A stretch of DNA of 64,000 bases from Eledone cirrhosa (lineage: Eukaryota). The stretch lies in assembly GCA_964016885.1 (NCBI GenBank), contig OZ024740.1:102672001-102736000 (forward strand), written 5' to 3'. Below the pieces are notes generated by a model, which saw nothing but the letters and a program-made list of their open reading frames with translations, did not search any database and was not told the DNA's origin. Both the position numbers and the translations under genes were made by a program. Every line of letters starts with the position of its first letter. Position 1 is the stretch's first letter. Shown here one piece after another: positions 3,915 to 55,636 of this stretch.

Positions 3915-6842
3915 TTGCACATTGAGGGTTAGAGAGGGCCCTTGAGTTTAGTAAGACATCCTCTCTAGTGCTGGTGGCACAATTAAAAGCACCCAGTCCA
4001 TGCTGTAAAGTGGTGCTGGTGTTAGGAAGGGCATCCAACAAGTGTATCAATGCCAAAACGATTATCAGCACAGCAACAAGATAGGAACAACAAAATATGA
4101 AGATGTCGCATCTCAGAGTTGCAACACTTAATGTTGGCACTCTCAGAGGTAGATTTGCTGAAATAGCGGAGATGCTGGAGAGAAGGCATGTGGATGTGTG
4201 CTGCGTGCAAGAGGTGAGATGGAGAGGTGCCTCTGCGAGACTAGTCGTAGGCAAACATCTTAGCTATAAGATTTTCTGGGTAGGTAAGGATGATGGGTTA
4301 GGAGGAGTAGGCATTTTCCTGGCTGAGAGATGGATCAATAAGACAATAGAGGTAGTTCCAGTTAGTGATCGAATAATTAAGCTTAGATTAGTTGTAGGCA
4401 GGAGACTACTGACAATCATCTCTGCCTATGCTCCACAAGCAGGCCTAAGCAAAAAGAAAGACTGCTTTTGCGAGCAACTTTTACAAACAACCGCAATGAC
4501 AGAGGATGGAGACATCATTATGCTAGCAGGGGACTTCAATGGTCATGTTGGGCAGCTCCAGGATGGTTACACTGGGGTACATGGTGGGCACAGTTACGGC
4601 TCAAGAAATGAAGAAGGAGTGAGACTTCTTGAATTTTGTGATGCAAGTACACTGACTATTTGCAACACCAACTTCCAGAAACCTGCCAACCACCTAATAA
4701 CCTACAAATCTGGCGAGCACATAAGCCAGATTGACTTGTTACTAGTTAGGCAGAGGGACAGGCAGATAGTGTCTAATACTAAGGCATACCCTGGGGAAGA
4801 ATGTACCCCACAGCATAGGTTAGTCGTTAGTGATATCTCAGTAAGCAAGAGATGGAATGAGACATACAGGAAGGTGTGGAGAAGAAAGGCCTGGAAGCTA
4901 AAAGACCTTTCACTAAAATACAATTTAGGAAAGCCCTTCAAAATGTGTATGACGAAAAAGAAGATGATTTAGAGACGTATGACATAGATAATAACTGGAA
5001 TTTCTTACGTGACAACTTACTGCAGGCTACTGATGAAACTTGTGGCTGGAGCAGAGCTCCAACCAAACAGAGAATGACCTGGTGGTGGAACAGCACAGTA
5101 GATAAGGCCATTAGAGACAAAAGACTAGCATGAAAGGCTTGGGAAAAGGGTGGGAGTAGGGAAGGATATACAGCCGCTAAGAGAGAAGCTAGACGTCAGG
5201 TGTACTTAGCACGCAGGGAGGCTGAGAGTAGAAGGTTTGCCAATGTTCTGCGATGGGAAGATCAGAGGCGTGCAGTGTTCCCCATTGCAAGGCAGTGTGT
5301 CAATGCAAATCAGGATGTTGTTGGAGATAAATGTGTCTGGAATGATGCCGGTGTACTTAGTGTCACGAATGATCAGAAAAAGGAGGCCTGGAAATGTCAT
5401 TATGAGAGACTGATGAATGTGGAGAACGAATGGGAGAGAGAGAAATTACCCTCAGTAGATCCGACAGAGGGACCAGCTATTGAGATTGATGAATATAGGG
5501 TCCAAGAGGCGATTAAGGAAATGAAAAATGGTAAGGCTGCTGGACCATCGGGGATAGTTGCTGAGATGCTGAAGGCATCAGGGGACGTAGGCACTAAACT
5601 GGTTGCACGCATCATCAATCAGGCTATATATCGTGGTGTCATACCCAAAGACTGGTGCAGCAGTATTCTCATAAATTGCTACAAAGGTAAAAGGGATGCT
5701 CTGGAGAGGAGAAATTATAGGGGTATAAAACTGATAGATCAGGTTATGAAAGTGGCAGAAAGGATATTAGCACAACTAATTAGAGAAAGGGTCAAACTAG
5801 ATGAGATGCAGTTTGGTTTTGTGCCTGGGAAGTGTACAACAGATGCTCTCTTCTTGGTGAGACAATTACAAGAGAGGTTCTTAGAGAAAAATAAGTCACT
5901 ATACTTAGCCTTTGTTGACCTAGAGAAGGCCTTTGATAGGGTACCCCGATCTGTCATCTGGTGGTCCCTAAGGTGTTGAGGAATGGCTTATGAGGACAGT
6001 GCAAACTTTGTACAGAGGTATTGTCAGTAAATTCAGAGTAGGAATGGAGTTTAGTGAGGAATTCCAGGTACAAGTAGGAGTACATCAAGGTTCGGTCCTC
6101 AGCCCACTCTTGTTCATTATAGCCCTCCAAGCCGTAACAGAGGAATTTAAGACTGGCTGTCCATGGGAACTTCTCTATGCTGATGATCTGGTTCTTATAG
6201 CAGAATCAGTAGAGGAGCTAGATAATAAATTCTGGCTATGGAAACAGCAGTTGGAAGCAAGAGGACTGAGAGTGAACTTAGCTAAGACAAAAGTGTTGAT
6301 GAGTAGAAAAGAGGACAAAACTCTGATTCCGTCAGGGAAATGGCCATGTTTGATATGCAGAAAAGGAACTGGCATAAATTCTATAAAATGCACACAATGC
6401 AGATCCTGGGTACACAAGAGATGTAGCAGGATAGCAGGCAAACTAACAGGTAGGGAGAAATACGTATGCAGTAGATGTACAGGGAAATTAGACAGTAGAA
6501 GTCGCATTGATACATACATTTTTCAAATGCAGGCGGGTGCTATATAAGTACTGGATAGCTTCCGGTACCTAGGAGATCAGATTAGCATGTTAGGGGGGGG
6601 GGGGGTCCGAGGCTATAGTATTTAGAATAAGGATGGGTTGGAAGAAGTTTAGGGAGCTGCTTCCTTTGCTGATGAAGAAGGGTTTCTCCCTGCATACGAA
6701 AGGCTGGTTATATGATGCCTGTGTGAGGAGCGCGATGCTGCATGGTAGTGAGACATGGGCAGCAACTGCAGAGGATATGCGACGGCTGGAGAGAAATGAG
6801 GCAAGCATGCTCCGTTGGATGTACAGTGTCAATGTGCGTGAA
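3915..6842 (+). mobile_element. RTE-clade LINE family A, with 5' UTR, frameshifted, 3' end missing
   Basis: APE motifs (TLNVGTL, VQEVRW, SAYAPQ, GDFNGHVG, QID, PQHRLV) in 4097-4972; RT motifs ([31 protein letters not shown]) in 5200-6547; LHGSETW at 6633-6840; stops and frameshifts. Confidence 0.95.
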
Positions 6843-11286: not shown

Positions 11287-11552
11287 TTGTTTCCTTGAGC
11301 AAGACACTTTATTTCACATTGCTCCAGTTTACTTAGCTGTAGAAATGAGATGATAGAGACTGGCGTCCATATCATTCCACTGCAAACTGGTCGTGGAGGT
11401 GCCACGGCAAAAAAGCACCCAGCACTCACTGTAAATGAGGTTGGTGTTAGGAAGGGCATCCAGCTGTAGAAATCAAGCCAGAATCAGTTCCCGTCCCAAC
11501 CTTGCAAGCAGGGAAAATGCGTACATAAAATGAAATGATGATGAAATGATGA
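11287..11552 (+). mobile_element. RTE-partner SINE, 5'-truncated
   Basis: CORE-like CCTTGAGCAAGACACTT body and tail matching 53334-53672. Confidence 0.9.
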
Positions 11553-22514: not shown

Positions 22515-22795
22515 TCATCATTCCATTTTACGTCCACTTTTCCCTGCTTGCAAGGGTGGGACGGGAACTGATGCTGGCTTGATTTCTACAGCTGGATGCC
22601 CTTCCTAACACCAACCTCATTTACAGTGAGTGCTGTGTGCTTTTTTGCCGTGGCACCTCCACGACCACTTCAGTCCCTATCATCTCATTTCTACAGCTGA
22701 GTAAACTGGAGCAATGTGAAATAAAGTGTCTTGCTCAAGGAAACAACACATCACCCAGTCACCCAATGCTCTAACCACTAAGCCATGTGCCTCCA
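22515..22795 (-). mobile_element. RTE-partner tRNA-SINE with B-box region deleted
   Basis: Reverse complement starts GGAGGCACATGGCTTAGTGGTTAGAGC; body and tail match 53334-53672. Confidence 0.92.
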
Positions 22796-22808
22796 TGTAT
22801 ATATATAT

Positions 22809-22870: not shown

Positions 22871-22936
<66 letters not shown>

Positions 22937-22940
<4 letters not shown>

Positions 22941-24240
22941 AATGGAGGAGTTTAAGACCGGATGCCCATGGGAACTCCTGTATGCTGATGACCTCGCACT
23001 CATAGCTGAATCTATGGTAGAACTAGAGAATAAATTCCAAACCTGGAAGCAGGGACTAGAGAGAAAGGGCCTCAAAGTCAACATGACAAAGACTAAGGTC
23101 CTTGTAAGTAGACGAGAAAACAGAACCCAGATCCCCTCAGGGAAATGGCCTTGCTCAGTATGTAGGAAAGGTGTAGGTAGGAACTCCATTCTCTGCCCCA
23201 AATGCAAACAATGGGTACACAAGAGATGTAGCGGGATCTCAGGAAGCTTAATTAAGAATGTAGGATTCACATGCAGCAGCTGTGCTGAAACAGCAAGCAA
23301 ACAGCCACAGGAAACAAGTACCACCAATCTCTGGAAGGGCCCTGTAGAAACAGTAGACAGCTTCTGCTACCTAGGTGACCGAATTAGCAACGGAGGTGGG
23401 TGCTCAGAAAGTACAATAACTAGGGTAAGAACGGGATGGAAGAAGTTTAGGGAACTACTACCACTGCTAGCTGCAAAAGGCTTCTCCCTCAGAATGAAAG
23501 GCAGACTGTATGATGCGTGTATCCGAACAGCGATGTTGCATGGTAGTGAGACCTGGGCGCTGAAGGTGGAAGACTTACGTAGATTAGAGAGAAACGAAGC
23601 CTGCATGCTCCGATGGATGTGTAACAGTAATATACGTGAACGACAAAGCATAAAGGAATTGAGAGAGAGACTGAGCATAAGAGGAATCAAATGCTGCGTG
23701 CAGGAGAGGCGGTTATGCTGGTATGGACATGTGATGCGTATGAAGGATGACAGCTGCATAAAAAGGTGCAGAGCACTAGAAGTTGATGGAAACTGCGGAG
23801 TGGGGAGACCCAAGATGACTTGGGATGAGGTGATAAAAGCCGACCTTACCCAACTACACCTCTCAAAGACAATGACACACGACCGTGACTTCTGGCGTCA
23901 CGCAGTAATACAGAGTACCCGACCTCCCATGGGTACATGCTGAAGCATATAAACAATATGCCCCCACTCCCCCCACCGCAAGGTGGTCGTGGAGGTGCCA
24001 CGGCAAAAAAGCACCCAGCCCACACTGTAAAGTGGACGTGTAGGCACCACGAAAAAGCACCCAGCACTCACTGTAAATGAGGTTGGTGTTAGGAAGGGCA
24101 TCCAGCTGTAGAAATCAAGCCAGATCAGTTCCTGTATGAGCAAGGCATGGTCAGCCGACCAGACACTGCCCACAACAGGACAACCCGTCTAACCCATGCT
24201 AGCGTGGAAGAACGGACGTAAAACGGTGATGATGATGATG
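22937..24240 (+). mobile_element. RTE family C, 5'-truncated
   Basis: [19 protein letters not shown]-like finger, CWYGHVMR, stop at 23943, distinct 3' UTR and (GAT)n tail. Confidence 0.96.
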
Positions 24241-27829
<3,589 letters not shown>

Positions 27830-39091: not shown

Positions 39092-41910
39092 TCATTATCA
39101 TCATCATCATCATCAGGTTTAGCGTCCGTGTTCCACGCTTGCATGGGTTTGGACGGGGGTTTTCCCACTTGAGGCAAGAGTGGTTGTCTTGCTCGCATAG
39201 GACTGTCTGGCGGGTTTTCTACAGTTGGATGCCCTTCCTAACACCAACCACATTTACAGTGTGGGGCTGGGAGGTTTTTACCGTGTTGCCTACACGGCCA
39301 CATTACAGCGTGGACTGTCTGGCGGGTTTTCTACAGCTGGATGCCCTTCCTAACACCAACCACATTTACAGTGTGGGGCTGGGAGGTTTTTACCGTGTTG
39401 CCTACACGGCCACATTTACAGCGTGGACTGTGTGTTTTTTGTCGTGACACCTACATGATCTCATTTGTTTCGGCCTGGATGTTGTGGGACCAACATAACT
39501 TTACATTGAAAGGGGCGGTGTGGAGGGACGGGGGTGTGTTTTGATAGAGGTGCCTACTGACTGTAGTAGGTTTTTACTTTGTATTTAGGTAAGGCGGGTC
39601 TTCTCTATTACTGAGTACCGCCAAAGGTCTCGGTCCAGTGACATTGTCTTGGAGAGGTGTTAGCGTGTGAGGTCGGAATTTATCAGCTCGTCCCATGTTT
39701 TTCTGGGTCTGCCTACTCCGTGGCTACCGTCTATCTTTATTGCCCTGCACTTTGTTATACAGCTGTCGTCTTTCATGCGCATCACGTGACCGTACCAACG
39801 TAGCCTTCTCTCGAGTAAACAACATCTGATCCCTCTTATTTCTAATTTTTTCCTTAGTTCGTTTATGCTTTGCCGTTCACGTATATTACTATTGCACATC
39901 CAGCGGAGCATGCAAGCTTCGTTCCTCTCTAGTCTGCGTATATCCTCTGCACACAATGCCCAGGTCTCACTGCCATGCAGCATTGCTGTTCGTATGCAGG
40001 CATCGTATAACCTGCCTTTCATTTTTAGGGAGAACCCTTTAGCGGCTAATAGTGGTATAAGCTCTCTGAACTTTTTCCATCCAGTTCTGACTCTAGCTAC
40101 TATACTTTCAGAGCACCCTCCCCCACTGCTGATTTTGTCACCCAGATAACGGAAGCTGTCCACTATTTCTATAGAACCCTCTGCGCAGTTGAAGGAGCTA
40201 GTATTTTGTGGGCACTTGCTGCTACTTATTGCACCAGAGCACCGGCCACATGTAAAATCTATGTTCTTAGTTAGCTTACCTGTGATCCCACTACATCTTT
40301 TATGCACCCATACTTTGCATTTGGGACATAAAATGGAGTTTCTACCTACGCCTTTCCTACACACTGAGCATGGCCATTTCCCCGATGGGACCGCCGCCTT
40401 ATTTTCTTTCCTACAAACTAGAACTTTAGTCTTAGCCAGGTTAATTTTAAGGCCTTTTGATTCTAGGCCGTGCTTCCACGTTTGGAATTTCTTCTCTAGT
40501 TCGGTCATTGATTCAGCTATGAGCGTTAGATCATCTGCGTATAGGAGTTCCCATGGGCAGCCGGTCTTGAACTCCTCTGTTATAGCCTGAAGGGCAATAA
40601 TAAATAGTAGGGGGCTAAGTACAGAGCCCTGATGGACACCAACTTTTACGCTAAACTCTTCACTATATTCGTTGTTAATTCTAACCTTACTGACTGTTTC
40701 TTTATACATGGCTTGTATAGCTCTCACAAGCCATTCGTCAACACCTAGTTTTCTAAGAGACCACCAGATAATGGAACGGGGGACTCTGTCGAAGGCTTTC
40801 TCCAAGTCGACAAAAGCTAAGTATAGGGGTTTACTTTTAGCTAGGTACTTCTCCTGTAGTTGTCGTACAATGAAAAGAGCGTCTGTGGTACTTTTGCCTG
40901 ACACAAACCCGAACTGCATTTCATCTAGATCAATTCTCTCTCTGATTAGTTGCGCTATTACTTTTTCCGTGACCTTCATGACCTGGTCGATTAATTTAAT
41001 GCCTCTATAGTTACTCCTATCTAGGGCATCTCCTTTTCCCTTATAGCAGTTAACGATGATGCTGCTACGCCATTCCTTCGGAACAACCCCATTCTGTACG
41101 ACTTGGTTAACTATCCGGGTGACCATGGTGTGTCCCACCGAACCAGATGCCTTCAGCATCTCAGCAACTATTTCCGAAGGCCCAGCCGCCTTACCCGTCT
41201 TCATATCTTTGATTACCTTACTTATTATACTACCTTCAACTGCTGGTCCCTCTATTGGATCGATCTGGGGGAGACTGTCTTTCTCCCATTTGTTCTCCTC
41301 ATTTAGAAGCCTTTCGTAGTGACACTTCCAAGCTACCTTCTTATCAGCGTCGGTGATGGCAAGTATGCCATCATCGTTAAGTACACACTTCTCCCCGACA
41401 ATATCACGGTTTTCCTTGACACATTGCCTGGCAATCCTGAACACCTCACGTTTTTGGTCCTCACGTTGTAGAACATGCTTGAACTTTCTTTCCTCTGCTT
41501 CCCTTCTTGCGAAGTACACTTGTCTCCTAGCTTCCCTCCTGGCCACTTGATAGTCTTCTCTACTTCCCCCATCCCGCCATACTTTCCAAGCCTGCTTTTT
41601 GGCCTTAATTGACTCCTCCACCTTACTGTTCCACCACCATGTTACTCTCCTCCTACCTACAGGCCTGCTCCAGCCACAGACTTCGTCTGCCGCCGTCAGC
41701 AGGTTTGCTCTCAGAAATTCCCACTGTTCCTCTATATTATACGACTCTAATTGCTCTTCCTTACTGTCGAAAGCGTCAAGTAATTTGCTTTGAAATTTAT
41801 TTCTGGCTATGGGGTCCTTTAGCTTCCATATTTTTCTCCTGAGGATAGTCCTCTTTCGCTGTCTAGTACGTCTCGTCCTGACTATGAGGTCGCTAATTAT
41901 CAGTCTATGT
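39092..41910 (-). mobile_element. RTE family B, 5'-truncated, with a ~110-bp tandem duplication in the 3' UTR
   Basis: ORF 39660-41621; 39200-39318 repeated at 39313-39431. Confidence 0.97.
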
Positions 41911-42105: not shown

Positions 42106-42398
42106 TATATTTAAAATTGTTGGGTTACAACTAGTAAATATTTATAACTGATATAAAAGCACTCGACAAATATTTGGAGTATATTTACAATATTAAATAA
42201 ATGGAAAACTATATTTATAAAACCATATTTATTTCATTATATATATTTCGGGGATATCATATTAACAATATGCTATGCCTTCATCAGACAATTTGTCTGA
42301 TGAAGGCATAGCATATTGTTAATATGATATCCCCGAAATATATATAATGAAATAAATATGGTTTTATAAATATAGTTTTCCATTTATTTAATATTGTA
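42101..42398. mobile_element. Minimal fold-back PLE family 2 element: two back-to-back hammerheads (minus 42230-42291, plus 42292-42354)
   Basis: Palindrome centred at 42292 (TCATCAGACAA T TTGTCTGATGA); left extension ~85 nt. Confidence 0.9.
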
Positions 42399-43090: not shown

Positions 43091-46000
43091 AGACGTAAAT
43101 AGAGTGAACGACAGAATAATTAAAATACGACTTGTCCTCAATAGAACTACGGTGACAGTAATATCTGCGTACGCACCCCAATCCGGACTGCCCGGCACTA
43201 TAAAAGACAGATTCCATGAGACACTGATGCTAACTACCTCCCAAATATCCGACAGTGACTATATAATTATTGCAGGCGACCTAAATGGTCACGTTGGACA
43301 ACATTGTGACGGCTACGACGAAATCCATGGAGGCTATGGGTTTGGTACTAGAAATGAGGAAGGCTCCAGAATCCTGGAATTCTGTGATGCAAATAACCTA
43401 ACTATCTGTAACACTAACTTCAAAAAACGTGACAATCACCTGATCACCTATAGATCCGGGGAACACACAAGCCAGGTAGATTATATCCTTACCAGAAGAC
43501 GTGACAGAGTGTCTGTTGTAAACACTAAATCCCTCCCCCATGAAGAATGCACCTCCCAACATAGACTGATAATTAGCGACCTCATAGTCAGGACGAGACG
43601 TACTCGACAGCAGAAGAGGACTATCCTCAGGAGAAAAATATGGAAGCTAAAGGACCCCACAGCCAGAAATAAATTTCAAAGCATATTACTTGATGCTTTC
43701 GACAGTAAGGAAGAACCTTTAGAGTCGGACAATATAGAGGGACAGTGGGAATTTCTGAAAGCAAACCTGCTGGTGGCGACAGACGAAGTCTGTGGCTGGA
43801 GCAGGCCTGTAGGCAGGAGGAGAGTAACATGGTGGTGGAACAGTAAGGTGGAGGGGTCAATTAAGGCCAAAAAGCAGGCTTGGAAAGTATGGCGGGATGG
43901 GGGAAGTAGAGAAGACTATCAAGTGGCCAGGAGGGAAGCTAGGAGACAAGTGTACTTAGCAAGAAGGGAAGCTGAGGAAAGAAAGTTCAAGCATGTTCTA
44001 CAACGCGAGGACCAAAAACGTGAGGTGTTCAGGATTGCTAGGCAATGCGTCAAGGAAAACCGTGATATTGTCGGGGAGAAGTGTGTACTTAACGATGATG
44101 GCATACTTGCCATCACCGACGCTGATAAGAAGGTAGCTTGGAAGTGTCACTATGAAAGGCTACTAAATGAGGAGAATAAATGGGAGAAAGACAGTCTCCC
44201 CCATATCGACCCAATAGAGGGACCAGCAGTGTTAGTCGAGGGGAGTATAATAAGTAAGGCAATCAAGGATATGAAGACGGGTAAGACGGCTGGGCCTTCG
44301 GAAATAGTTGCTGAGATGCTGAAGGCATCTGGCACGGTGGGACACACCATGGTCACCCGTATAGTTAACCAAGTCATACAGAATGGGGTTGTTCCGAAGG
44401 ACTGGCATAGCAGCATCATCGTTAACTGTTATAAGGGTAAAGGAGACGCCCTAGATAGGAGTAACTATAGAGGCATTAAATTAATCGACCAGGTCATGAA
44501 GGTCACGGATAAAGTAATAGCACAACTAATCAGAGAGCAAATTGACCTAGATGAAATGCAGTTCGGGTTTGTGTCAGGCAAAAGTACCACAGACGCTCTT
44601 TTCATTGTACGACAACTACAGGAGAAGTACCTAGCTAAAGGTAAACCCCTCTACTTAGCTTTTGTCGACTTGGAGAAAGCCTTCGACAGAGTCCCCCGCT
44701 CCATTATCTGGTGGGCTCTTAGAAAACTAGGCATTGACGAATGGCTTGTGAGAGCTATACAAGCCATGTATAAAGAAACAGTCAGCAAGGTTAGAATTAA
44801 CAACGAATATAGTGAAGAGTTTAGCGTAAAAGTTGGCATCCATCAGCGCTCTGTTCTCAGCCCCCTACTATTTATTATTGCCCTTCAGGCTATAACAGAG
44901 GAGTTCAAGACCGGCTGCCCATGGGAACTCCTATACGCAGACGACCTGACACTCATAGCGGAATCAATGGCCGAGCTAGAGAAGAAATTCCAAACATGGA
45001 AGCACGGCCTAGAATCAAAAGGACTTAAAATTAACCTGGCTAAGACTAAAGTTCTAGTTTGTAGGCAAGAAAATAAGGCGGCGGTCCCTTCTGGGAAATG
45101 GTCGTGCTTGGTGTGTAGGAAAGGCGTAGGTAGAAACTCCATTTTATGTCCTAAATGCAAAGTATGGGTGCATAAAAGATGTAGTGGGATCACGGGTAAG
45201 CTAACTAAGAACATAGATTTTACATGTGGCCAGTGCTCTGGGGCAATAAGTAGCAGCAAGTGCCCACAAAATACTAGCTCTTTCAATTGCGCAGAGGGTT
45301 CTATAGAAATAGTGGACAGCTTCCGTTACCTGGGTGATAAAATCAGCAGTGGGGGAGGGTGCTCTGAAAGTACAGTAGCTAGAGTCAGAACTGGTTGGAA
45401 AAAGTTCAGAGAGCTTATACCACTATTAGCTGCTAAAGGGTTCTCCCTAAAAATGAAATGCAGGTTGTACGATGCCTGCATACGAACAGCAATGTTGCAT
45501 GGCAGTGAGACCTGGGCATTGTGTGCAGAGGATATACGCAGACTAGAGAGGAACGAAGCTTGCATGCTCCGCTGGATGTGTAACAGTAATATACGTGAAC
45601 GGCAAAGCATAAACGAACTAAGGAAAAAATTAGAAATAAGAGGGATCAGATGTTGTTTACTCGAGAGAAGGCTACGTTGGTATGGACACGTGATGCGCAT
45701 GAAAGTCGATAGCTGTATAACAAAGTGCAGGGCAATAAAGATAGACGGTAGCCACGGAATAGGCAGACCTAGAAAAACCTGGGACGAGCTGATAAACTCC
45801 GACCTCACACACTTATACCTCTCCAAGACAATGTCGCTGGACCGAGACCTTTGGCGGTACTCAGTAACAGAGAAGACCCGCCTTACCTAAATACATAGTA
45901 AAACCTACTACAGCCAGTAGGCATCTCTAACAAAATACACCCCGTCCCACCACTACCACCCCCACCCCATCCACACCACTCCGTTCTATATAAAGTTATG

Positions 46001-46286
46001 TTGGTGCCACACCATCCAGGCCGAAACAAATGAGATCGTGTAGGTGTCACGACAAAAAAACACACAGTCCACGCTGTAATGTGGCCGTGTAGGCCACACG
46101 GTAAAAACCTCCCAGACCCACACTGTAAATGTGGTTGGTGTTAGGAAGGGCATCCAACCGTAGAAAACCTGCCAGACAGTCCTATGCGAGCAAGACAATC
46201 ACTCTTGCCTCAAGTGGGACTACCCCCGTCCAAACCCATGCAAGCGTGGAACACGGACGTTAAACGTTGATGATGATGATGATGAT
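43091..46286 (+). mobile_element. RTE family B, young copy with an uninterrupted ORF from mid-APE to the stop at 45890
   Basis: ~930 open codons: APE C-half, RT (YADD), C4HC3 finger at 45105-45236, RWYGHV; 3' UTR and (GAT)n. The ORF-track start at 42837 is microsatellite read-through. Confidence 0.98.
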
Positions 46287-53333: not shown

Positions 53334-53670
53334 GGAGGCACATGGCTTAGTGGTTAGAGCATTGACCTTGCAATCGAAAGGTTGTGAGTTCAATTCTCAG
53401 ACCGGGTGATGTGTTGTTTCCTTGAGCAAGACACTTTATTTCATATTGCTCCAGTTTACTCAGCTGTAGAAATGATATGATATGGACTGGGGTCCATATC
53501 ATTCCACTGCAAAGTGGTCGTGGAGGTGCCACGGCAAAAAAGCACCCAGCACTCACTGTAAACGAGGTTGGTGTTAGGAAGGGCATCTAGCTGTAGAAAT
53601 CAAGCCAGAATCAGTTCCCGTCCCACCCTTGCAAGCAGGGAAAAAGCGGACGTAAAATGAAATGATGATG

Positions 53671-53727: not shown

Positions 53728-55636
53728 AAGGCTACAGGCCATGACTGGCTATTATTATTATTGCTGCTGTATTCTATCGGCTACTTTGCCATTTTGCCAT
53801 GCTGTATTCTATCGGTTAGTTTGTTAGCCTTGATGGCGAGCTTCTCTCTATGATGGCTACCCTCTCTCTATCTCTCTCTCTCTATTTATCTCTAAGACAC
53901 CTATTACCTCCCGTTCCCTCTTCACCCATTCCTCCTCACCCATCTTGAAGTTATTGAAGAGATAAGACACACTCTACTCTGAAAGGCTAAAATGAATCAC
54001 TAGAGTTGATTTAGCTACGTTCCAGCCATCCATCCATCCATCCAAATCTTGTCAGGTATTTCAGCTACCACAACACATCTAATTTGTTATCCTCATTTTC
54101 CCTACCATGCTGACTCTCTATCTGTCTATTTTTCCATCAAAGGCTACAGGCCATGACTGGCTATATTATTATTGAAGCTGCATTCACTTCTATAGGTTAT
54201 TTTGATGACATGACTGGCTGCCTCCCACCCCTCACACCACCATAGCCTATTCGACCAATCAAACCTCAGCATGTCATTTCTTCTACTACTACTACTACTA
54301 CCTAACTCTCTCCTCCCCCGTCCCAGCCCAACACACTTTGCCATTATTACCACCACCAGTGTTCTTCTAGCCCTGAATTTTCCTACCGTTACGTATGGAT
54401 GAGCTGTGAATAAATTGGAGCAACTCAGAATTAATAGAAGAAATGAATATGAATCCGCGAGCTACCAAGCACCCATGTGAAGCCCCAATCCAGAGAGAGG
54501 AAGCACACACACACCCCTTCAAAAATCGACCCTTCCCTACGAGTGTCGACAAATGCCCAAAACTCCGAGTTGGTACCATCAATGAAAGCACAATGAAAGG
54601 AAGAGCAGGAGAAATCATAGAAATGCTAGAGTGAAAGGAAATTGATGTATGCTGTGTGCAAGAGACAAGATGGAGAGGAGGGTCTGCTAGAGTCCTTGTA
54701 GGAAAAAGTCAGTGCTACAAATTTTTCTGGGTGGGAAATGACGATGAGATGGGTGGTGTAGGTATACTACTAGCTGACAAGTGGGTAGATAAAGTAATCT
54801 TAGTGTACAGGGTAAATGCAAGAATCATTAAACTCAGACTAGTCCTGAATAAAACAATTACCACAATAATATCAGCTTACGCACCCCAATCGGGGTTGTC
54901 AGACGAACTTAGGGATAGATTTTACGAGTCCCTAATGCACACTACTGCTCTAATAAACGACAATGACTTCCTAATCATCGCAGGAGATTTTAATGGACAC
55001 GTAGGTAAACACTGTGACGGCTTCAATAGAGTCCATGGAGGCCATGGGGTTGGCACAAGAAATGAAGAAGGATTCAGACTTCTAGAATTCTGCGACGCAA
55101 TGACATTTCGATATGTAACACAAACTTCAAAAAACCCGACAACCACTTGATCACCTATAGATCAGGGGAGCACTCTAGTCAGATAGATTTTATCCTCATC
55201 AGAGGATGTGACAGATGGACAGCTGCATAAAATGGTGCAGAGCACTAAAAGTGGAGGGAAGACCTGGGATGAGGTGATAAAAGCTGACCTTGCCCAATTG
55301 CACCTGTCAAAGGTGATGACACAGGACCGAGACCTCTGGCATTACGCAGTAATACAAAAGACTCACGGGTACAAGCCGAAGCTGAAGCATATAGACAGTA
55401 TGCCCTCAACCCACTCCCACTGTAAAGCACCCAGCCCACACTGTAAAGTGATCATGTAGGTGCCATTTTAAAAAAGCACCCTGGAAGGGCATCCAGCTGC
55501 AGAAATCAAGCCAAAATTGGTTTTGTATGAACAAGATATGGTCACTTGACCTGGCATTGCCCACAACAGGACAACCCATCTAACCCATGCTAACGTAGAA
55601 GAATGGTCGTAAAACGGTGATGACGATGATGATGAT
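53726..55636 (+). mobile_element. RTE family C-like element: 5' UTR and APE joined directly to the 3' end (RT deleted at ~55207)
   Basis: APE motifs in 54560-55205, then GKTWDEVIKADL..DRDLW, UTR and tail resembling 23816-24240. Confidence 0.9.

Follow-up and report, generated by a model that had tools for sequence, protein, structure and literature searches.

A conserved and probably structured RNA element in the 5' or 3' UTRs of RTE-type retrotransposons of Eledone cirrhosa and in a tRNA-type SINE

The stretch of 64,000 nucleotides of Eledone cirrhosa DNA analyzed here (the window) harbors a module that is common to the 5' UTR of one RTE family (A), the 3' UTRs of two sister families (B and C) and a tRNA-type SINE, as had been originally predicted. 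The module is built from units of two adjacent predicted H-type pseudoknots, PK1 and PK2, followed by a core for which a third pseudoknot, PK3, is predicted, and sequence comparison indicates that it is a real, probably structured RNA element. We propose, with a probability of about 45%, that it constitutes a position-independent RNA site needed for retrotransposition and likely bound by the RTE protein. Such a cis site is suggested by its retention in elements that lack an ORF, together with the fact that each of the sister LINE families carries it at one end only, either 5' or 3'. The sequence segment itself was already known as a piece of RTE 5' UTRs; the present analysis adds this restriction to one UTR per family, a test of the third knot and a parallel with a twister-led RTE family.

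Host elements and placement of the module

The RTE hosts encode an AP endonuclease and an RT (Pfam EN and RT matches) as well as a PHD-like finger, and they display the single ORF, endonuclease first and RT second, and the short repeat tail (GAT in these hosts) by which RTE-type LINEs are recognized; an intact family A ORF of 1022 aa is found at locus L299. This architecture, together with a 5' core common to the hagfish RTE-2/4_EBu elements, is the sequence basis of the RTE clade label. The PHD-like zinc finger follows the RT domain (window 45105-45240 and equivalents in A and C; Pfam PF00628, E 1e-6 to 6e-5), and is a candidate RNA or chromatin contact. The strings quoted in the original prediction are present in the three families (family C 23986-24121, A 3968-4054, B 46036-46173), and the window shows the following copies:

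22936..23943, + strand: 3' portion of the coding frame in a family C RTE copy truncated at its 5' side; covers the RT end and a PHD-like finger, with the stop codon at 23941-23943
24184..24243, + strand: RTE 3' terminal stem-loop and (GAT)n tail of a family C copy
3968..4054, + strand: predicted PK1-PK2-core in a family A 5' UTR, with AGGAAG 73 nt upstream of the ATG at 4097
46035..46173, + strand: two units and core in a family B 3' UTR
12672, 29932, 36892, 19724, 39351, 39239: core positions of further family B copies
55418..55512, + strand: deleted module in an internally deleted C-related copy
11389..11479, + strand: SINE with a C-type unit, a core and a 3' tail matching that of family A; a further copy has its core at 53576
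22515..22797, - strand: full-length SINE copy with tRNA-like head, a stretch that we take to be CORE-like, unit, core and A-type tail; ends approximate

Family A carries the module in its 5' UTR only, and families B and C in their 3' UTRs only. Among near-full copies of family A, the core lies 72-75 nt upstream of the ATG in 8/8 and between ORF end and tail in 0/8, the ORF extending to the tail without a module; a core at most 1100 nt from the ORF end occurs in 3 of 29 oriented family A loci and, among the matches listed, always beyond the tail. The near-full copies of family B have the core 3' of the ORF in 4/4 cases and those of family C in 7/8, the eighth copy being truncated. Concerning the opposite end, a 5' UTR marker is kept by 17 of 30 family B loci, none of which (0/17) has the core in that 5' UTR, where CCAAT words are repeated. 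The family A module forms the 3' end of a long leader, ~19 of 30 copies being alike 200 nt upstream and about a dozen 600-800 nt upstream. Family C is young, with 156 nt at 100% identity in 40/40 scored matches. Matches to the core word number 13 in the window, and core matches number 65, a few of them by chance, in 760 kb of arbitrarily chosen stretches, from which roughly 250,000 core copies are extrapolated for the 3.0-Gb genome.

Exceptions to one core per element are family F4 and the window copy at 39239/39351. A subfamily of B carries a duplicated PK2-unit-core block, hence two cores per 3' UTR (window 39210-39458, - strand; L343, L360 and L214), and in F4 (L392-L421) the entire A-type leader (PK0-PK1-PK2-core, ~140 nt) is tandemly repeated, the repeats lying 600-1100 nt behind an RT C-terminus in 4/30 loci. 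At L296:4518-5073 a family A 5' end stands directly behind a family B tail, a tandem arrangement of the kind from which a fusion between an ORF and a module lying downstream could arise.

The ORF-less elements with a core are the window SINE, family F5 and the L378 and L375-type elements, and the core is also present in the hagfish SINE1-1, 2-1, 2-1B, 2-9 and 2-10 within the supplement of PMC7245038. In the window SINE a C-type unit and core are joined to an A-type tail, and F5 and L378 are likewise non-coding elements that join the core to an RTE 3' tail. A set of 70 tails found in 864 kb without using the motif has the core within 220 nt in 45 cases and an ORF adjoining in 2; the remaining 23 appear to be either decayed or truncated to short pieces, and by eye no shared family without a core is apparent among the 70. 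Family F5 (L482-L511) is an old bipartite RTE element of ~170 nt. By eye, the 110 nt at its 5' end are very similar to hagfish RTE-4_EBu, which would point either to horizontal transfer or to strong constraint. Animal-type SINE and RTE sequence was also seen in records titled as bacterial or archaeal MAGs (L031-L036, L369-L391), where it is likely contamination.

The conserved core and its predicted pseudoknot

The deeply conserved part of the module is its last element, AGGAAG-RGCA-T-CC, and on this sequence evidence the initial emphasis on PK1 and PK2 was misplaced. In the family C copy the core is laid out as follows:

24081..24121, + strand: conserved core, predicted PK3; S1 GGTTGG/CCAGCT, AGGAAG in the loop at 24091-24096, then an A-rich linker leading to GCC at 24119-24121, the partner of GGC

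A 23-letter pattern of the core finds at least 122 metagenome loci (~2500 estimated) and 23 genome-contig loci, counts that retain about six apparently chance bacterial matches; the contexts of these outside loci, i.e. tRNA heads, RTE frames and RTE tails, suggest that they are animal DNA. Autonomous RTEs with the core in the 5' UTR are family A (8/8), L369 and L152, in which it lies ~230-250 nt upstream of the endonuclease frame, and hagfish RTE-2/4_EBu. The viral contigs scanned gave 0 matches, the combined PK2 and core pattern gave 4 apparently chance bacterial matches in the genome-contig collection, a protein-led search of that collection yielded no RTE relative, and an exact 48-nt guessed pattern had no match in this genome.

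The core had been described as a terminal hairpin with a loop that could pair downstream. Across 59 outside representatives the inner hairpin pairs -3/+8 and -1/+6 mostly hold (48/59 and 53/59), whereas -4/+9 and -2/+7 hold in 26/59 and 27/59; with two of the four pairs failing in over half of the rows and the other two mostly kept, the core may switch between hairpin and pseudoknot. The suggested loop partner (TCCTA/TTCCTG) is missing from the corresponding position of families A and F4. Judged from sequence, the core is more likely a third pseudoknot, formed with a GC ~28 nt downstream, than a hairpin. A helix of at least 4 bp between the core GRGCAT and the region from +19 to +38 is found in 33/59 outside representatives, which are partly non-independent and were retrieved with a pattern that fixed part of both stems, against 15/59 and 16/59 in flank controls and a maximum of 21 in 200 shuffles. 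Restricting the count to clusters with at least 2 members gives 10/14 vs 3/14 and 2/14 in the controls, and the downstream GC sits at +28 to +31 in 32/48 outside cases. The own-genome representatives, many of them single decayed copies, show the S2 helix in 7/22 vs 6/22 and 6/22 in flank controls. As for S1, cognate halves pair better than swapped ones (P 0.017), and a T-G/T-A exchange indicates the sense RNA strand. No two-sided change in S2 was found within the family, and since the 5' strand of S2 is invariant and partly fixed by the search pattern, the conserved GC could be a sequence contact instead of a pair.

A low-copy RTE family (L516-L548, e.g. G000:C4:96354674-96354790) starts at a twister-like RNA and has its own predicted pseudoknot directly behind it. 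The family is distant, being ~28% identical in the endonuclease, its copies begin at the ribozyme, and RF03160 gives 9 matches below cut-off, up to 49.8 bits. The pseudoknot behind has the layout of the core, with TAGC/GCTA replacing GGC/GCY and an identical linker start, GTAAAA; if it is homologous, for which position and layout are the basis, it would supply the two-sided change missing within the core family. By eye, the core of hagfish RTE-2_EBu also follows a twister-like word. A small endonuclease tree of 8 rows, with a distant and unreliable root, groups the outside 5'-type families with A (support 89/90), and this grouping and the hagfish placement suggest that the 5' position is ancestral.

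The PK1 and PK2 units

Upstream of the core, the family C copy carries an array of units, to which family A adds a further predicted pseudoknot, PK0:

23973..23986, + strand: half PK2 unit at the start of the array, CCACC/GGTGG hairpin with GCAA loop (-7.9 kcal/mol for 23970-23986)
23986..24015, + strand: PK1 of unit 1, predicted H-type; S1 GTCGTG/CACGGC, S2 GGTGC/GCACC, A-rich loop 3
24016..24035, + strand: PK2 of unit 1, predicted; S1 CAG/CTG, S2 CCAC/GTGG; alternative GUAA-capped hairpin
24037..24061, + strand: PK1 of unit 2, predicted; S1 shortened, S2 partly broken
24062..24082, + strand: PK2 of unit 2, predicted; S2 CTCA/TGAG, an A-T to T-A double change
3925..3967, + strand: PK0, extra predicted pseudoknot upstream in family A, AGGG/CCCT with TAGAGAGG/CCTCTCTA, by eye

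By eye, PK0 is also present in the old family F4, where letters are changed but pair. The PK1+PK2 unit spans 50 nt and forms arrays of 1-23 units, so that the doubling first noticed in B and C, which do have two units there, is one state of a variable array. Among 67 arrays from random stretches, 36 have one unit, 20 have two, 4 have three and 3 have five, the others having 12, 21, 21 and 23. Arrays of 21-23 units, minisatellite-like, lie inside old RTE 3' ends (L353:1733-2836, L082:1419-2455, L071:327-1291).

In the predicted stems of the window units, 87.1% of the cells are paired, compared with 25-48% when the partners are slid. Taken by stem, the 9 distinct units are paired in 97.7% of cells for PK1 S1, 77.8% for PK1 S2 and 85.2% for PK2 S1, the last value being lowered by a misaligned B2 row, and PK2 S2 was left out of this test, its register having been lost in the alignment. 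The percentage paired is reached by 0/500 shuffles, and the number of double-changed pairs by 61/500. The case for PK2 is less clear: its S1 (CAG/CTG) is invariant in this genome, and its nested fold is a hairpin able to carry a GUAA (GNRA) loop. Nested-fold energies are unremarkable (z -1.16 and -1.64), as computed by programs that cannot score pseudoknots. Beyond this genome, the PK2 topology recurs with CCTG/CAGG in one family (L147/L193/L194), and L369 has a partial PK2 homologue with S1 extended to CGCAG/CTGCG; no clear PK1 homologue was found outside this genome. On sequence grounds, PK1+PK2 appears as a local add-on and not as the deeply conserved part.

That compensatory changes keep both stems does not hold throughout, as second units break PK1 S2 (GGCA/CACC in C2, a shifted register in B2). 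Counting over 10 lineage states, which are related to each other and leave many rows outside clusters, double-changed pairs amount to 5/19 vs 1.9 when permuted (P about 0.01), one of the five being a CpG artefact and one depending on the gap rule, and broken cells to 20 vs 29.5. The same states show 14 broken pair types vs 9 extra paired types, the broken ones mostly in second units and at stem ends. An R-scape-like test (own implementation) on dead copies gave no significant proposed pair among 152 or 310 units; the best pair with 310 units, 38-50 in S2 of the PK2 unit, ranks 1 of 1225 at E 5.8. The control, a 3' tail stem run through the identical pipeline, is also without significance, its one double change coming first at E 2.6, and because this control fails too the test is underpowered. 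Covariation is thus weaker than first claimed, though the lineage counts favour the stems.

Possible function and relation to known systems

In the proposed mechanism, the core would fold into the predicted pseudoknot, which would bind the element's own RTE protein as its putative ligand, and the RNA would thereby be chosen as template whichever end carries the core. The 5' position would be ancestral; the B/C lineage may have gained its 3' UTR module by taking over the end of a two-part non-autonomous element (5' module plus tail), as suggested by the module-plus-tail layout that its 3' UTR has in common with F5/L378-type elements, and would have replaced its 5' UTR by one with CCAAT-like words. 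PK1+PK2 would be an auxiliary stack peculiar to the lineage, gaining and losing units as a minisatellite does and less strongly constrained. Of the originally suggested functions of a structured RNA, an RT/protein-loading site would fit best; the element is conserved and likely structured, but a classical IRES or a ribozyme fits poorly with SINE retention and with the place between ORF and tail.

A broader version of this proposal, which we consider doubtful, is that of a transplantable RNA handle across animal RTEs, a pseudoknot just behind a 5' ribozyme slot, recognized by the RTE protein at whichever end of the RNA it lies; one lineage would have captured a parasite's handle-plus-tail into its 3' UTR and would tune it with 1-23 pseudoknot pairs. 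If true, it would explain why RTE-mobilised SINEs must keep the 5'-UTR piece, a question left open in the discussion of PMC5786205. To that question the core brings a concrete 40-nt predicted structure and a natural transplant, with the module 5' in one family and 3' in the sister families. Gene-insertion tools based on RTE-type elements are under development, and according to the sections covered of PMC13708176 their templates require both UTRs; for such tools a defined recognition element that works irrespective of position would have practical value.

The main rival reading, which we consider somewhat unlikely, is that the module acts in translation: from the 5' or the 3' UTR it would bring ribosomes or factors to the single ORF, and SINEs would keep it in order to dock close to RTE protein that is being made, in the manner of Alu with SRP9/14. 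The core's distances to the ATG in A and to the endonuclease frame in L369 and L152, and its place after the twister-like word of hagfish RTE-2_EBu, would suit this role, and both ribozyme-led RTE leaders (in reporters, PMC8501958) and the tandem pseudoknots of the TMV 3' UTR (PMC5382211) are described as supporting or stimulating translation. However, the module is kept in ORF-less elements, in B and C it has shifted to a place far from the start codon, and Rfam shows no sequence likeness to an IRES or to the TMV family.

We regard it as unlikely that constraint is limited to the core, which might then be a DNA motif or a linear site for a protein, PK1/PK2 being a minisatellite with partly incidental pairings. 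The lack of significant covariation on copies, the broken second units, the frequent stem breaks in arrays of up to 23 units and the invariant PK2 S1 competing with a GNRA hairpin speak for this reading, and Kojima proposed regulator binding for conserved RTE 5' segments in PMC5786205. Against it stand the lineage-level excess of kept pairs, position 14, whose partner is 8 or 27 and for which three pair types occur, the PK2 topology kept by an outside family and the extended S1 of L369, as well as the low power of the R-scape-like test, whose control stem fails too.

That stacked pseudoknots block exonucleases and stabilize the RNA, or generate short module-plus-tail RNAs that give rise to non-autonomous elements, is improbable: the tandem compact folds are predicted and families consisting of module and tail do exist (F5, L378), but the module is internal in SINEs and in family A lies >300 nt (up to ~850 nt in some copies) inside shared 5' sequence. 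A new self-cleaving ribozyme formed by PK0-PK2 in the slot that twister occupies in related RTEs is highly improbable, for despite the positional equivalence with the twister-led family and hagfish RTE-2_EBu, cleavage in B/C would cut the ORF from the tail, up to 23 times, similarity among family A copies continues far upstream without an abrupt edge at the module whereas copies of the twister family start at the ribozyme, and no Rfam ribozyme matches.

The comparison with Rfam, carried out on the window and 20 loci, gave no relevant match, only simple-repeat miRNA noise. Long perfect inverted repeats, MITE-like hairpins, at window 42251-42333 and 2023-2170 were picked up in this way. A twister ribozyme has no match in the window or the 20 loci, the RF03160 matches of the genome belonging to another RTE family. 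The HDV-like ribozyme likewise has no Rfam match, and by eye PK0 is without P3/L3 of the HDV-like layout, which we take to be a nested double pseudoknot with P3/L3 and P1.1. No described structure for the module was found in Rfam or in the literature searched, a scope outside which most subscription papers, Repbase and Dfam lie, and term look-ups in PMC5737381, PMC9115989 and PMC13295347 gave nothing on the element.

Among known systems, the twister and HDV-like ribozymes at RTE 5' ends (PMC8501958, PMC6765202) are related in that the core, or an analogous pseudoknot, stands behind the ribozyme in relatives, but unlike twister the module has no twister words and matches no ribozyme model. The bipartite RTE elements and SINEs of PMC5786205 and PMC7245038 contain the segment as an RTE 5'-UTR piece; within the extent of these papers covered, they give no structure and no autonomous LINE with the segment in the 3' UTR, and those hagfish sequences of PMC7245038 that were examined are without PK1+PK2 arrays. 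The Ceph domain (PMC5786205) is also a conserved segment of mollusc SINE bodies, with an RTE part that likewise derives from an RTE 5' UTR, but the once-suggested link to it falls, as the SepiaSINE RTE-derived segment is by eye a different sequence and 'ggcatcc' has 0 matches in the available supplement of PMC5786205. The Vhc subdomain of V-SINEs, a 39-bp block of the V-domain, is another such conserved mollusc SINE body segment, and the Vhc SINE sequences in the consulted part of PMC4758252 lack GGCATCC. The upstream pseudoknot domain of the TMV 3' UTR (PMC5382211) resembles the module in that small H-type pseudoknots are predicted one after another in a 3' UTR, but the module is part of a retroelement, occurs also in 5' UTRs and SINEs, has 1-23 units and no Rfam match. 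Finally, the 3' UTR of avian and turtle R2, whose pseudoknot-hinge-stem is bound by the R2 protein in birds (PMC12180492), belongs to a different LINE group, and the module studied here lies also in 5' UTRs; the likeness is one of layout, not of sequence comparison, and it offers a works-like analogy, with a pseudoknot upstream of a terminal stem and a purine-rich conserved single strand in both.
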